From Desulfocapsa sulfexigens DSM 10523 (GTDB lineage Bacteria > Desulfobacterota > Desulfobulbia > Desulfobulbales > Desulfocapsaceae), in assembly GCF_000341395.1 (NCBI RefSeq), contig NC_020304.1, positions 3,720,001-3,752,000 on the forward strand: a DNA stretch of 32,000 nucleotides, given 5' to 3'. The position numbers and the translations under genes were made by a program. Below, one piece after another: positions 3,973-23,866 of this stretch. Every line of letters begins with the position of its first letter. Within the stretch, counting starts at the first letter, position 1. The notes beneath the pieces are model-generated. The model did not search any database. It was given only the letters and a program-made list of their open reading frames with translations, and was not told the DNA's origin.

Positions 3973-4049
3973 CGGAACGTAGCGCAGCCTGGTAGCGCAC
4001 TTGTCTGGGGGACAAGTGGTCGGAGGTTCAAATCCTCTCGTTCCGACCA
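3973..4049 (+). tRNA. tRNA-Pro (anticodon GGG), CCA encoded
   Basis: The cloverleaf folds by hand. Acceptor CGGAACG/CGTTCCG, D stem GCGC/GCGC, anticodon stem CTTGT/ACAAG with loop CTGGGGG (anticodon GGG, G37), T stem GGAGG/CCTCT with loop TTCAAAT, discriminator A plus CCA. Confidence 0.9.
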
Positions 4050-16564: not shown

Positions 16565-16759
16565 AAAGGATACCTATGTAAGCGTCTATTTTTTAAGGAA
16601 CTAATCAGATATATTCTTGCATACCTCATACACTCTTGTAAAGTCAACCTATTTTCAGTAAATGACTAGCATGGAAATTATTCTCCAGAGTTGATTTCAG
16701 TGACTCTACAGCAGTTTAAAGCAATTGGATCTAATCACTTAACATATACAGACACACAC

Positions 16760-19318
16760 ATGAAACGAAACTTCGAACAGAGAGAAACCCTTCCTTTTGT
16801 CAACAAACCAGGACGTTACCTTGGTCACGAATACAATGCCTTTGTAAAAAACTGGGAGCAGACTCCGCTCCATTGTGCACTTGTCTTCCCGGATCTCTAT
16901 GAAATTGGTATGTCCCATCAGGGTTTACAGATACTCTATCACATCCTGAATGCTCAGGACAGTGTCCTTGCTGAACGTTGCTATTGTCCTGCCAAGGATA
17001 TGGAAGAACTTCTGCGGTCACGCAACCTTCCCCTCTGTTCACTCGAAAACAATCGTTCCCTACTTGACTTTGACCTTATCGGGATAACCTTGCCCTATGA
17101 GCTTTGCTATACCAACATCCTCACCATCCTTGATCTTGCCTCAATCCCTCTTCGCTCAACTGATCGCGACGAGGATATGCCCATCGTGCTTGGCGGCGGC
17201 TCCTGCAGCCTGAACCCAGAACCTGTTGCTGATTTTTTTGATGCCATCCTCCTCGGTGACGGTGAGGAGGCCATTCTCGAAATTGCCGAAAGTGTTCGCC
17301 TTGGCAGGAAGGATCAGCTTCCAAGAGCTGCCATTCTTGAAAAACTTGCCGCCATCCCCGGTGTCTACATACCTTCCCATTTTGAGCCTTCCTACAAAGA
17401 GGATGGAAGTATTGCAGAAATCAAGGCTCTCCATCCTGATTTTCAGGTGGTTACACGAAGAGTTCTCAATGATCTGTCCAAACTCGACCACCTTCTCCAT
17501 CCCCTGGTCCCCAATTCAAAAATTGTCCATGACAGATTAGGGGTAGAGGTAGCCAGAGGGTGCACAAGAGGGTGCCGTTTTTGTCAAGCTGGGATCATTT
17601 ATCGTCCTGTCCGGGAACGAAGTCCCGAACAAATTTTTGAACTTGCCAGTCAGGGAATCAAAAATTCAGGTTTTGACGAACTTGCCCTGCTCTCTCTTTC
17701 CACCGGCGATTACTCCTGTCTTAGTACAACTTTGCCCCAACTGATGGATCGATTTTCCAGGCAGGCCATATCAGTTTCCATGCCTTCCATGCGTGTTGGC
17801 ACACTCACCCAGGGGCTTATGGATCAGATTAAACGAGTTCGCAAAACCGGTTTCACACTGGCTCCCGAGGCCGGAAGTGAACGCTTGCGTCGAGTTATCA
17901 ATAAGGGAATCACCGAAGATGATCTCCTCAACACCAGCAAAGATGCCTTTGGACTTGGCTGGAAGGTGATGAAGCTCTATTTCATGATAGGTCTGCCAAC
18001 CGAAACCCTGGAAGATATTGAAGCTATAGCTGAGCTTGCCAACAAGACCAAGGAGGTGGGAAGCCGGTCGGGCGGCAGGGGCCGGCAACAGATTAATGTA
18101 AGCGTTGGAACATTCGTCCCTAAACCGCACACCCCTTTTCAATGGGATGCACAAATATCAATCGAAGAAAGCCGAGAAAAAATATCCCTGCTGAAAAAGA
18201 TACTGCCGAGAAAAGGAATCAACTTCAAATGGCACGATCCGGAACAAAGCCTGCTTGAAGGTGTATTCTCCCGTGGTGACAGACGGTTGGCGGATCTACT
18301 TGAAACAGTGTGGAAGAAAGGTGCCAGGCTTGACGGTTGGTCCGATTACTTTGATCTTTCACGCTGGCAGGAGGCGGCCGATGAATGCTCGCTTGTCCTC
18401 AGCGATTTTCTCCGTCCAAGAGGCCTGGAGGAGATCCTCCCCTGGCACCACCTCAGCAGTGGTGTTGACGAGAATTTTCTCAAGGAAGAATTACAGAAAG
18501 CCCATACGGAAGCATACACGCCCGACTGTCGCTATCACGATTGCCAGAAATGCGGCCTCTGTGATTTCAAAGTAATCAAACCCGTTGTCATTGACAGAAA
18601 ACAGCGGCAGCCAGAGGAAGCTGAAGGCAAACCTCCCTTCGGCCTCCCAAAGCAAACAGATAGACCGCAGCAGAACGAAGAACTCCATTTTCGCTATTTC
18701 GTTACTTATTCCCGCATGGGAGACATCTGTTATCTTGGCCATCTGGAAATCCTTCAGATTGTTTTCCGTGTTCTGCGCCGTGCTGGAATCGAAACTAATT
18801 TTTCCAAGGGATTTAACCCATCTCCCAAGGTATCCTTCGGCCCTGCAATGCCCGTTGGTACACAAAGTCTTGCTGAATATTTTGTAATGGATCTGCCCAT
18901 GCCGCTTGATAACCTGGAAGAAGCCAGGGAACGATTGAATAAACAGATGCCCCCGGGTCTCACCGTTCAAAAAATAGTTCTCAGCAACGGCAAGGTTCCG
19001 CAGGAAATGGTCAGTTCCTATCGGATCACTCTCTACCCGACACTGAGCAGTAACGACAAACAACTGATTGAGAAATTCCTGGCTACTGACAGCTTTACCG
19101 TGAAACGGGTTCGCAAGGGAAAGGTCATGGAAATCGATTTCAGACCACTTGTTGTTTCACTGGAATGTATAGAAGAGGAAACACTGTCCCTGGAGTTGCT
19201 CAGCAAGGCAAGTCAGGCCGGAGTAAAACCACTGGAAGCACTTGCGTCCATTCTGCAAAAGGAACAAAAGGAATTACTCTCCTCCGTGGTCATAAAAACC
19301 GGCTGGAAAGAGGTTTAG
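16760..19318 (+). CDS. B12-binding-domain radical SAM protein fused to a DUF2344-type C-terminal domain (TIGR03960/TIGR03936-like, recalled)
   Basis: Radical SAM cluster motif CTRGCRFCQAG. The N-terminal ..VNKPGRYLGHEYN.. is typical of this family. The C-terminal ~220 aa (..FRYFVTYSRMGDICYLGHLEILQIF..GFNPSPKVSFGPAMPVG..) looks like the usually separate DUF2344 protein. I prefer ATG 16760 over the TTG at 16691. Confidence 0.8.
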   Translation: MKRNFEQRETLPFVNKPGRYLGHEYNAFVKNWEQTPLHCALVFPDLYEIGMSHQGLQILYHILNAQDSVLAERCYCPAKDMEELLRSRNLPLCSLENNRSLLDFDLIGITLPYELCYTNILTILDLASIPLRSTDRDEDMPIVLGGGSCSLNPEPVADFFDAILLGDGEEAILEIAESVRLGRKDQLPRAAILEKLAAIPGVYIPSHFEPSYKEDGSIAEIKALHPDFQVVTRRVLNDLSKLDHLLHPLVPNSKIVHDRLGVEVARGCTRGCRFCQAGIIYRPVRERSPEQIFELASQGIKNSGFDELALLSLSTGDYSCLSTTLPQLMDRFSRQAISVSMPSMRVGTLTQGLMDQIKRVRKTGFTLAPEAGSERLRRVINKGITEDDLLNTSKDAFGLGWKVMKLYFMIGLPTETLEDIEAIAELANKTKEVGSRSGGRGRQQINVSVGTFVPKPHTPFQWDAQISIEESREKISLLKKILPRKGINFKWHDPEQSLLEGVFSRGDRRLADLLETVWKKGARLDGWSDYFDLSRWQEAADECSLVLSDFLRPRGLEEILPWHHLSSGVDENFLKEELQKAHTEAYTPDCRYHDCQKCGLCDFKVIKPVVIDRKQRQPEEAEGKPPFGLPKQTDRPQQNEELHFRYFVTYSRMGDICYLGHLEILQIVFRVLRRAGIETNFSKGFNPSPKVSFGPAMPVGTQSLAEYFVMDLPMPLDNLEEARERLNKQMPPGLTVQKIVLSNGKVPQEMVSSYRITLYPTLSSNDKQLIEKFLATDSFTVKRVRKGKVMEIDFRPLVVSLECIEEETLSLELLSKASQAGVKPLEALASILQKEQKELLSSVVIKTGWKEV

Positions 19319-22451: not shown

Positions 22452-22483
22452 ATAAACATTTCTTTTAACTTTTTGGAGGAAGT

Positions 22484-23806
22484 ATGAAGAAAAATCTGAT
22501 CAAATTTATTCCTTTTTTCATCATGGCATCGTTTATGATGACCGGATGTAATCAGGATACGAGTTCCACCACCGCTGCGGCCAAGCCCGCAGTATCTACC
22601 CAGGCAAAAGCGCCGAAAGAACTGAAGTACGCGGGTAGTGTTGTGGGAAAATCCAACAAAGCAAAGAGTATTTCTATTTCCGTTGGAAAAGGCAAAGAAG
22701 CAAAGACAGTAATGGTTAAATTTGATGACAATACCAAGGGCGTTGAACATGCATCCCAAGGTCATGCGTCAATCATTTTCTATGAAATGCGTGATGGTCA
22801 GCCATGGGCAACTGTTATCAAGCCAAAGCTCGCAAAACTCCCTGAAGGAGTCACCGAGATCAAAACAGCAGAGATGAAAGCTCTGATGGACAGTCAGGAA
22901 AAATTTGTCCTTATTGATGCTCGTCCTGCAAAAAGATATGCTGCCGACCATATGCCCGGTGCTGTTAATCTCTCAGTACCTGACTATAAAGAAAAAGCCG
23001 CTTCCGTACTCCCTAAGGATAAAGACATACAGCTTATTTTCTATTGTGGAGGCCCCACATGAGGTATGTCCACCAAAAACGCCGGTCTGGCGAAGAAAGA
23101 AGGCTATAAAAATGTACGTGTTTACCTTGAAGGTGAGCCTGCATGGATAAAAGATGGCAACATGGTCCATGCCAGTAAAGGATTTGTCACAAAAGGAAAC
23201 ATCGTTCTCATCGATCTCCGTTCAGCAAAGAAATCTGCTGAAAAAAGGATCCCTCGGGCAGTCAGCATACCTTATGACACTCTTGACGACCGCCTGGATG
23301 ATATTCCTAAAAAAGCTCCCGTCGTTATTTACAGTGATTCCATGGAAGAATCCATGGATGCGTACTCTGATCTTCACGATGAGGGGTTCAAAAAAGTTTC
23401 AATGGTACCAGGAAACTTTGATGGCTGGGTAAAGAATGGTGGAGCAACCACCAGTGGACCAGTAGTCACCGACATCGTTTGGGTAAGAAAGCTTGGAAAA
23501 GGCGAAGTTGGCAAGGCCGATTTCATGAAAGCAGTTGACGGTAGCGATGCTGGTGCAATTATTCTTGATGTACGAACTCCGGACGAAGCAAGTGCCGGCG
23601 GGTTTAAAAATGCTATTGCTGTTCCTTTGGATCAAATAGCTAAACGTCTTTCCGAGATTCCAAAGGACAAAAAAGTCTATGTCCACTGCACCACTGGTGC
23701 CCGTGCAGACATGGCCGCTCAGGAACTGAACAAAAATGGCTACAAAGCATTCTTCTTCGTTGCAAATATCGACTGTAAAGGCAATGAGTGTAAAGTAGAA
23801 GATTAA
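22484..23806 (+). CDS. Triple-rhodanese-domain lipoprotein with in-frame UGA (candidate selenocysteine at 23060-23062); the ORF track splits it into 22484..23062 and 23066..23806
   Basis: Both ORFs share one frame and are separated by TGA plus one Gly codon. The TGA falls inside the rhodanese catalytic loop (..DIQLIFYCGGPT-U-GMSTKNAGLAKKEGYKNVRVYLEGEPAW..). There is a lipoprotein signal MKKNLIKFIPFFIMASFMMTGC with GGAGGA upstream. The third domain has a canonical HCTTGAR loop. Confidence 0.72.
23080..23092 (+). other. SECIS-like mini hairpin CGCC-GGUCU-GGCG downstream of the in-frame UGA
   Basis: A 4-bp all-G:C stem with a 5-nt loop GGUCU. The loop begins 22 nt after the UGA. The GGUCUG hexamer is shared with the apical part of the E. 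coli fdhF SECIS as I recall it (GCAGGUCUGC). Confidence 0.45.
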
Positions 23807-23828: not shown

Positions 23829-23866
23829 ACAGTCAGAATATAAGCTCATATTCTGACTGTGTTTTA
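23829..23866 (+). terminator. Rho-independent terminator after the rhodanese gene
   Basis: Perfect 13-bp stem ACAGTCAGAATAT/ATATTCTGACTGT (23829-23841 / 23848-23860), loop AAGCTC, followed by GTTTT. Confidence 0.8.

Follow-up and report, generated by a model that had tools for sequence, protein, structure and literature searches.

Here, we report that positions 22484-23806 of the window, the whole 32-kb stretch of Desulfocapsa sulfexigens DSM 10523 DNA that was analysed, very likely form one gene for a selenocysteine (Sec)-containing, lipid-anchored and periplasm-facing rhodanese protein. Judged from the sequence and its relatives, the UGA codon inside this gene almost certainly encodes Sec. 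We suggest that the protein probably functions in periplasmic sulfane-sulfur handling by means of a Cys/Sec redox pair. The gene and its predicted features are as follows.

22475..22479, + strand: Shine-Dalgarno sequence GGAGG, 4 nt upstream of the ATG, read from the sequence.
22484..23806, + strand: very likely a single selenoprotein gene of 440 codons plus a TAA stop, with UGA193 as Sec (sequence and comparative evidence).
22484..22549, + strand: lipoprotein signal peptide with lipobox M-T-G-C22 (Cys codon 22547-22549), the lipobox being kept in orthologues.
22625..22831, + strand: N-terminal beta domain, approximately residues 48-116, placed from the AF2 model of the Cys homologue P0004.
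22841..23167, + strand: rhodanese domain 1 with the loop C188-G-G-P-T-U193 (Pfam match 129-223; Cys188 codon 23045-23047).
23060..23062, + strand: UGA codon 193, almost certainly read as Sec (Cys in 77/77 full-length homologues; TGA in 71/80 other species).
23080..23092, + strand: predicted SECIS apical hairpin CGCC-GGUCU-GGCG, with four G-C pairs and a 5-nt loop, nt 21-33 counted from the U of UGA.
23177..23449, + strand: rhodanese domain 2, predicted to be catalytically inactive, as VVIYS-D lacks the active-site Cys (residues 232-319 give a GlpE-type match).
23501..23773, + strand: rhodanese domain 3 with the classical loop C402-T-T-G-A-R (Cys codon 23687-23689).
23829..23865, + strand: intrinsic terminator, a 13-bp hairpin followed by GUUUU (-17.5 kcal/mol, z = -4.29; none of 200 shuffles was as stable).

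Two open reading frames, 22484..23062 (192 aa) and 23066..23806 (246 aa), share one reading frame and are separated by nothing but TGA (23060-23062) and a GGT codon (23063-23065). The upstream ORF ends in ...IQLIFYCGGPT and the downstream ORF begins with MSTKNAGLAKKEGY; read-through yields a product of 440 residues in which UGA is residue 193. This TGA is the only one in the six frames of the window with at least 100 open codons on each side. TGA closes 8 of the 19 long ORFs in the window, i.e., it is an ordinary stop there, and reassignment of TGA in the genetic code is thus ruled out. When the read-through protein is compared with the Pfam Rhodanese model (PF00581), three stretches match (E=2.3e-40; 137.6 bits, above the gathering threshold of 22.2), and the best of them, residues 129-223, bridges residue 193. 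The earlier note on this DNA had proposed that the two ORFs are one gene, which annotation would enter as two. The shared frame, the single Pfam stretch across the UGA and the retention of the TGA in 71 other species all support the first point, and GenBank and RefSeq indeed hold two proteins, AGF79885.1 and AGF79886.1.

The evidence for Sec is comparative. The alignment of homologues runs unbroken through residue 193, and each of the 77 full-length sequences has Cys in this column, within the loop YCGGxTC. Among 80 other species-level Desulfobulbales genomes, the same column holds TGA in 71 and TGT or TGC in nine. Each of the 71 TGA-containing genes has one in-frame stop, and nearly all are open for ∼195 or more codons upstream and ∼247 codons downstream of it. 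The two halves are equally conserved, with mean pairwise identities of 60% and 59%, and on both sides of the TGA synonymous sites are saturated while amino acids are kept. The homologues are, thus, not pairs of separate proteins that happen to end and start at this point. Across the wider family, both loop cysteines tend to be retained or lost jointly, which fits a functional pair. Sec looks ancestral within this subfamily, with several independent reversions to Cys; one TGT gene (L025), which still has the hairpin described below, is nested in a Sec clade.

A conserved RNA element accompanies the TGA. All 72 Sec-type genes have the 13-nt hairpin CGCCGGTNNGGCG (CGCC-GGUNN-GGCG) at the same offset, whereas only 1 of 11 Cys-type genes has it. 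Among 63 conserved four-fold degenerate codons, third-position entropy is zero only in the three that lie in the hairpin, while the other 60 have at least 1 bit; moreover, in the codon preceding the stem the amino acid varies (N, I, V, S or A) and the third base is always C. The alifold consensus is this same hairpin, its apical loop GGUCU is identical to that of the Escherichia coli fdhF SECIS, and its energy is about -6.4 kcal/mol. When the 71 nt surrounding the UGA are folded as a single sequence, the result does not stand out from shuffles (z = 0.46), so that the element is revealed by comparative analysis only. Because the stem is invariant, covariation is absent. No Rfam SECIS family matched at gathering thresholds, nor did any match permissively on 23030-23150. 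A lower stem (nt 9-13 with 41-45) appears in some individual folds but is absent from the consensus and was dropped. Altogether, a hairpin with G/U in its apical loop lies shortly 3′ of the UGA, as expected of a SECIS. The claim of the earlier note that this UGA is a candidate Sec at the position of a second Cys, giving a Cys-x4-Sec pair, is borne out by the Cys column, the recurrent TGA and the hairpin together.

Peng et al. (2016) list D. sulfexigens DSM 10523 among the Sec-utilising organisms, for which SelD/SelA/SelB are the defining genes, and give 14 selenoproteins for it. For the machinery of the host we rely on this published survey, the sequence that we examined being 32 kb of the genome; within this window, selA, selB, selC and selD are absent, and a tRNA-Sec was found neither in the window nor in the 80 flanks of relatives. 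The metagenome-assembled genome behind one Sec-type relative (L078) has 56 selenoprotein genes in BSepDB.

Three other explanations for the interrupted frame have to be weighed against Sec insertion. A pseudogene or an assembly error, with a Cys-type rhodanese gene split by a nonsense mutation or by misread sequence, might be argued from the two separate proteins in GenBank and RefSeq and from the existence of intact Cys-type homologues. Yet an identical TGA, with no further stop, recurs in 71 independently assembled species-level genomes, both halves are under equal purifying selection, amino acids are kept on either side despite saturated synonymous sites, the invariant hairpin goes with TGA only, and the tree shows that the TGA genes are not contaminants from a single source. 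This explanation is effectively refuted by conservation and retains virtually no probability. We also regard as extremely unlikely that translation stops at the UGA and restarts at the AUG three nt on, giving two polypeptides. It is true that all Sec-type genes have an ATG one codon after the TGA and that gene callers choose this ATG as a start; however, this codon is simply that of the conserved Met in C-G-M-S, which uninterrupted Cys-type genes encode as well. A cut at this point would split a rhodanese domain between the central strand plus active-site loop and the next helix and, because the downstream piece has no signal peptide, would place the two pieces in different compartments. Re-initiation also leaves unexplained why a hairpin with a GGUC loop lies at SECIS distance and why it decays in Cys-type genes.

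Read-through of UGA193 without Sec, whether by a near-cognate tRNA (Trp or Cys) or by Cys-tRNA(Sec), likewise predicts the full-length product. Homologues function with Cys at position 193, and the Sec machinery is able to insert Cys when selenium is scarce. Nevertheless, the conserved element has the hallmarks of a SelB-binding SECIS in its spacing and fdhF-like GGUC loop, and both the organism and its relatives use Sec in many selenoproteins. Moreover, an inefficient, leaky stop would have been kept in 71 species although TGT or TGC is one mutation away, implying that UGA delivers something that Cys does not. We consider this third explanation very unlikely. Sec insertion at UGA193 is, therefore, the reading that we adopt.

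The Sec-containing protein is predicted to be a lipoprotein. Its N-terminus, MKKNLIKFIPFFIMASFMMTG followed by Cys, fits the lipobox pattern [LVI..][AST..][GAS]C by which bacterial lipoproteins are recognised in sequence, and this lipobox is kept in most orthologues as ..TGC, ..SGC or ..FGC; no twin-arginine motif was found in the signal peptide. Between the signal peptide and rhodanese domain 1 lies a beta domain of ∼70 residues that the first reading of the sequence had overlooked. In the AF2 model, for which the Cys homologue P0004 was used in place of the read-through protein, the strands of this domain (59-125) are confident (pLDDT ∼90), the preceding linker is disordered, and three alpha/beta rhodanese folds follow. 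The NCBIfam rhodanese models cover residues 120-231, i.e., domain 1, the C-x4-C pair of which is kept in homologues. The active-site loop that follows the central strand opens with a catalytic Cys in domain 1 (IFYC188) and domain 3 (YVHC402) but not in domain 2 (VIYS284), and Cys402, Gly405 and Arg407 of domain 3 are invariant. The three Pfam stretches and the conserved lipobox, thus, agree with the 440-residue lipoprotein with three rhodanese modules that had been proposed. By contrast, the view that a lipid-anchored, triple-domain rhodanese is unusual did not stand, because the architecture is represented by 235 tblastn-confirmed matches in species-representative genomes and by 464 representative clusters at E<=1e-30.

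Rhodanese-type selenoproteins are an already catalogued kind, as the earlier note had stated. The catalogued members share with the present protein the PF00581 domain, Sec in or beside the active-site loop, Cys homologues, identification by computational prediction and a distribution mostly in Desulfobacterota (Deltaproteobacteria). In the catalogued UxxG, CxU and UxU forms, Sec is at the canonical Cys or at +2, whereas here it would be at +5 (C-x4-U). The U-G-M-S of the present protein also reads as UxxS, and by this motif it may be the published "UxxS form 1" (WP_010941598.1, Geobacter sulfurreducens); neither of the two clusters looked up had a Geobacter member that would link the family to this form or to ExtH (below). 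As far as descriptions can be compared, the combination of a lipoprotein anchor, a beta domain and three rhodanese domains is mentioned for no catalogue entry.

The present protein reaches the cut-off of no NCBIfam selenoprotein model. The best-scoring such model for domain 1 is rhodanese_LYCAU (NF041203), a single-domain rhodanese of ∼126 residues in which Sec likewise alternates with Cys; however, the score of 81.6 bits is under the cut-off of 115, and the L-Y-C-A-U motif of that family (C-x-U) puts Sec at C+2 rather than C+5. TsoB (NF045694; Haft & Tolstoy 2025) is a curated rhodanese selenoprotein that resembles the present protein in having two redox residues spaced by x4, although as U-x4-U rather than C-x4-U. 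The TsoB model matches domain 1 (residues 126-231, E=6.7e-14), but the score of 50.9 bits comes from the rhodanese part only and compares with a cut-off of 805. TsoB is a rhodanese/DsbD fusion-like protein, and its DsbD-like partner suggests an extracytoplasmic redox couple. In contrast, the present protein has no DsbD-like membrane domain, has one Sec, is not accompanied by a tso operon or by selenoprotein neighbours, and adds a lipoprotein anchor and two more rhodanese domains.

Tandem rhodanese folds are also found in E. coli YnjE and other multi-domain rhodaneses (PDB 2wlr/3ipo and 1yt8; Foldseek probability 1.0). YnjE itself is exported and has three rhodanese domains, of which only some are active, and it is not known to be lipid-anchored. 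With an identity of 14-17% and a global TM-score of ∼0.2, the domain arrangement of the present protein differs from that of these proteins, which also lack Sec, a C-x4-C loop and an N-terminal beta domain. The RNA element can be compared in the same way. Both the present hairpin and the SECIS of E. coli fdhF are located within the coding region immediately 3′ of the UGA and have an apical GGUCU; the GGUC starts at nt 22 in fdhF and at nt 25 here, one codon farther from the UGA. The fdhF SECIS is a stem-loop of ∼40 nt (-14.9 kcal/mol), whereas conservation here extends to a 4-bp G-C stem and not to a lower stem.

We suggest the following model. The hairpin, at nt 21-33 counted from the U of UGA193, would be bound by SelB-GTP-Sec-tRNA(Sec), and Sec would be inserted at this codon, allowing translation to continue. 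The 440-residue prolipoprotein would then be exported by means of its Sec-pathway signal peptide and acylated at Cys22, presenting in order a flexible linker, the small beta domain and the three rhodanese domains. Cys188 and Sec193 would be a probable redox pair able to form a selenylsulfide. With polysulfide, thiosulfate or elemental sulfur as the source, this pair may accept sulfane sulfur as a persulfide or perselenide and may subsequently resolve it by passing sulfur to or from domain 3 or by releasing sulfide. Sec would, thus, stand in place of the second Cys of an ancestral C-x4-C loop, possibly because it is the better nucleophile and leaving group. This position of Sec leads to the hypothesis that the role of domain 1 is redox rather than pure transfer and, together with the need for selenium, to the hypothesis that growth on sulfur compounds requires selenium.

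A bolder version of this model would be that the protein represents a selenoprotein family that has yet to be catalogued and that is the default in Desulfobulbales. In this family, Sec would not be the canonical persulfide carrier but would pair with the catalytic Cys of the C-x4-U loop, and a rhodanese domain would serve as a periplasmic selenylsulfide redox module. We consider this version unlikely. If true, the protein could be the extracytoplasmic enzyme with which Desulfocapsa and related bacteria begin sulfur disproportionation, through activation or reductive cleavage of polysulfide, elemental sulfur or thiosulfate. Rhodaneses have been invoked repeatedly for the first steps of this chemistry, and here an exported, lipid-anchored protein of the sulfurtransferase type is kept in a lineage of sulfur disproportionation, cable bacteria and sulfate reduction.

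The genomic neighbourhood does not point to a partner. In the window, the gene is surrounded by radical SAM, PALP, peptidase S13, FapA and SbcCD genes, and these neighbours are common to only 11-19 close relatives; elsewhere, the most recurrent neighbours are ABC-F, Sua5/YrdC, PurD/E, TetR and GreA, and across 75 loci the neighbours that recur are housekeeping genes. We therefore rejected a functional gene cluster or operon partner, none being conserved across these loci. By description, the present protein can be likened to ExtH of G. sulfurreducens (GSU2940, extHIJKL cluster), which is likewise a lipoprotein, has rhodanese domains and is comparable in size (49 kDa), and the gene of which adjoins that of the Sec-containing multihaem cytochrome ExtKL/MccSep needed for sulfur respiration. 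However, ExtH is not reported to contain Sec, and no porin or cytochrome genes, such as those for the extI porin and the extKL multihaem selenocytochrome next to ExtH, are near the present gene or its 80 relatives.

The gene is a good teaching case for a minimal SECIS, a 13-nt hairpin that is seen from frozen synonymous sites and that decays after reversion of TGA to TGY. The nine rhodaneses counted in the D. sulfexigens genome paper very probably include both halves of this gene. In database entries of 246 aa, the start is always the conserved Met two codons past the TGA, and WP_459944181.1, a very recent RefSeq record from another genus, is a C-terminal fragment only. The two-fragment annotation needs the same correction in ∼70 species-level Desulfobulbales genomes as well as in more distant split clusters.

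The two ORFs called at 22484–23806 (forward strand) form one gene of 440 codons, as the earlier note had claimed: they share a reading frame and only a TGA and one GGT codon lie between them. Conceptual read-through of the UGA at codon 193 gives a protein of 440 residues, and the locus and its product are laid out as follows.

22484, forward strand: start ATG, preceded by GGAGG
23060–23062, forward strand: in-frame TGA, ending the frame opened at ATG 22484
23066, forward strand: ATG following the GGT codon, in the same frame as the upstream part, which stays open up to TAA 23804–23806
23080–23092, forward strand: SECIS hairpin (nt 21–33 counted from the U of UGA), located by comparison across species
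N terminus: signal peptide and lipobox, MKKNLIKFIPFFIMASFMMTG before C22, with no twin-arginine motif
After the signal peptide: linker rich in Ser, Thr, Ala and Pro
Between linker and rhodanese domains: beta domain of ~70 residues, missed in the earlier note
After the beta domain: three rhodanese domains
Domain 1 active site: C188-G-G-P-T-U193-G-M-S
Domain 2 active site: Ser at the catalytic position
Domain 3 active site: classical C402-T-T-G-A-R loop, with Cys, Gly and Arg invariant

The three rhodanese modules and the N-terminal lipoprotein signal had been anticipated, and Pfam Rhodanese indeed matches three stretches (E=2.3e-40). The best of these, residues 129–223, spans the stop at residue 193 and, thus, the first domain is incomplete in either called ORF, bearing out the claim that neither half holds a complete domain. 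TGA is a regular stop in the window, where it ends 8 of 19 long ORFs, and no other TGA in the six frames of these 32 kb is flanked on each side by 100 or more open codons.

The reading of this UGA as selenocysteine (Sec) proved correct and is supported by a conserved TGA, a Cys column and a SECIS hairpin. Among the best 120 database matches, all 77 full-length homologues (~440 aa) have Cys at the residue-193 column, within a near-invariant F-Y-C-G-G-x-T-C, while the 43 shorter ones (246 aa) all start at one same Met, two codons past this column. At the DNA level, the column is TGA in 71 of 80 species-representative genomes, Desulfobulbales throughout, and TGT or TGC in nine. Each TGA gene has exactly one in-frame stop, nearly all are open for ~195 or more codons upstream and ~247 downstream, and in most the upstream part opens with a lipoprotein signal. 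Mean pairwise identity among these Sec-type genes is 60% upstream versus 59% downstream of the UGA, indicating the same purifying selection on both halves. A pseudogene or a sequencing error, either of which could likewise place a stop inside a frame, is ruled out by the conserved TGA together with the equal conservation of both halves.

Folding the single sequence around the UGA gave nothing significant. Across species, CGCC-GGTNN-GGCG is present at an identical offset in 72 of 72 Sec-type genes, with the loops GGTCT (55), GGTCA (14) and GGTTC (3). These 13 nt comprise the third codon position of residue +6, Ala+7 (GCC), Gly+8 (GGT), residue +9 (NNG) and Ala+10 (GCG). Of 63 conserved four-fold-degenerate codons, 60 have a third-position entropy of 1.01–2.0 bits, whereas it is 0 bits at the three that lie within the hairpin (64/64 sequences identical). 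At residue +6 the amino acid changes (N, I, V, S, A) and the codon constantly ends in C. Cys-type genes encode Ala-Gly-x-Ala in varied codons (e.g., GCA GGA CAG GCA or GCG GAT CTT GCC), and the hairpin is retained in one of 11. The alifold consensus is the 4-bp G-C stem alone (−6.4 kcal/mol), and because this stem is invariant, no covariation can be counted. No Rfam model matches the hairpin. The apical GGUCU is identical to that of E. coli fdhF, the archetypal bacterial case, as taken from the genome; the GGUC lies at nt 22 in fdhF and at nt 25 here. Altogether, recoding of UGA193 by SelB and this very clean minimal SECIS is well supported by the comparative sequence data. D. sulfexigens DSM 10523 appears among the Sec-utilising organisms, with 14 selenoproteins, in a survey in which the Sec trait is defined by the presence of SelD, SelA and SelB (Peng et al. 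2016). No tRNA-Sec was found in the window or the fetched flanks; BSepDB lists 56 selenoprotein genes in the Desulfocapsaceae MAG behind one Sec-type locus (L078).

In the tree, Cys-type genes are scattered singletons within Sec clades, and there is a single, invariant SECIS; taken together, these suggest an ancestral Sec in the subfamily, followed by several independent reversions to Cys. One TGT gene (L025:5676–5720) is nested in a Sec clade with an intact CGCCGGTCAGGCG hairpin and, therefore, looks like a recent reversion carrying a fossil SECIS. Two genomes (L027:4886–6346 and L032:5189–6478) have a second, Cys-type (TGC) paralogue ~5 kb upstream of the Sec-type copy, and these paralogues pair up as the outgroup. 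A search with the family profile against 1.84 billion representatives gave 464 clusters at E<=1e-30; further distant clusters are cut off right at profile positions 191 and 194, which makes them additional Sec-type lineages. Three giants matching the profile (P0148, 2327 aa; P0224, 1654 aa; P0253, 1197 aa) have 7–15 rhodanese stretches.

The AlphaFold model of a Cys homologue with the same loop (P0004, FYCGGPTCGMST) is confident, at a mean pLDDT of 87.5; the signal peptide and the linker are disordered in it. The non-helical loop of its domain 1 starts at the first Cys and extends one residue beyond the second, and a helix begins two residues after the second. PDB matches are the multi-domain rhodaneses 1yt8, YnjE and EanB (identity 14–17%, global TM-scores ~0.2), which have similar folds but a different domain arrangement. 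Domain 2 is inactive because of its Ser. Both domain 1 loop cysteines are present in 60 of 88 full-length representatives; ~16 have lost both and seven only one, fitting a pair that works together. In distant full-length relatives (P0131, P0133, P0170, P0188, P0198 and others) they are usually replaced jointly (G/S, D/G, D/R etc.) while the domain 3 Cys is kept, indicating lineages with a dead domain 1. The terminal beta-hairpin contains a C-terminal C-x3-C (CKGNEC; 23777–23791, residues 432–436), whose Cys436 does not vary within the family. This motif may form a structural disulfide or act as a further redox site.

We suggest an exported, lipid-anchored protein in which two rhodanese domains are potentially active and the Cys/Sec pair of domain 1 probably cycles via a selenylsulfide while handling sulfane sulfur that could come from polysulfide, thiosulfate or elemental sulfur. 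This redox reading is favored because the loop residues are usually kept or lost together, because in TsoB, a curated selenoprotein, a DsbD-like electron-transfer module is fused to a rhodanese domain that has U-x4-U, and because Sec, according to reviews, commonly replaces redox-active Cys. For bacteria that disproportionate sulfur, the finding offers a testable lead to selenium-dependent sulfur chemistry in the periplasm.

Predictions of rhodanese-type selenoproteins date back to 2005, in line with the earlier note, and five forms (UxxS, UxxG, CxU, UxxG and UxxxxU) are given in a 2026 review. Here, Sec lies five residues past the canonical Cys, unlike in the CxU, UxxG and UxU forms, although U-G-M-S would also read as UxxS, the motif of form 1 (WP_010941598.1, Geobacter sulfurreducens), with which the protein may be identical. 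The protein reaches none of the NCBIfam selenoprotein cut-offs (NF041203, 81.6 versus 115; TsoB model, 50.9 versus 805). The gene encodes a selenoprotein of a known kind, new or at any rate not yet annotated, rather than a new kind of system; it may be one of the 14 selenoproteins attributed to the strain. Going by its description, ExtH of Geobacter, a 49-kDa rhodanese-like lipoprotein whose gene adjoins that of the Sec-cytochrome ExtKL/MccSep needed for sulfur respiration, makes an attractive functional analogue, but the gene context that defines ExtH is absent here.

In D. sulfexigens DSM 10523, the databases list the halves as two proteins, AGF79885.1/WP_015405567.1 (192 aa) and AGF79886.1/WP_015405568.1 (246 aa), the mis-annotation that had been foreseen. 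They are very probably the adjacent UWK_03368/UWK_03369, counted among nine rhodanese-related sulfurtransferase genes in the 2013 genome paper, which makes no mention of selenocysteine; the true count would then be eight. The best 120 database homologues include no full-length U-containing record, and a RefSeq entry added very recently for a different genus likewise consists of the C-terminal fragment alone, indicating that current pipelines still split this family. The present reading puts right a mis-annotation that runs systematically through an entire bacterial order.

The gene stands alone, behind a 425-nt intergenic region and ahead of a 13-bp terminator hairpin with a U-run (z = −4.3). 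No partner gene recurs at more than 29 of the 75 loci, and the recurrent neighbors are housekeeping genes. Its own neighbors (a radical SAM protein, a PALP enzyme, peptidase S13, FapA and SbcCD) are common only to the 11–19 closest relatives. The large radical SAM gene (16691–19318; Radical_SAM_N2, Radical_SAM, DUF2344; TTG start) keeps synteny with the rhodanese gene only among the nearest Desulfocapsa relatives. A tRNA-Pro (GGG) at 3973–4049 is the sole tRNA and sole Rfam match in the window.
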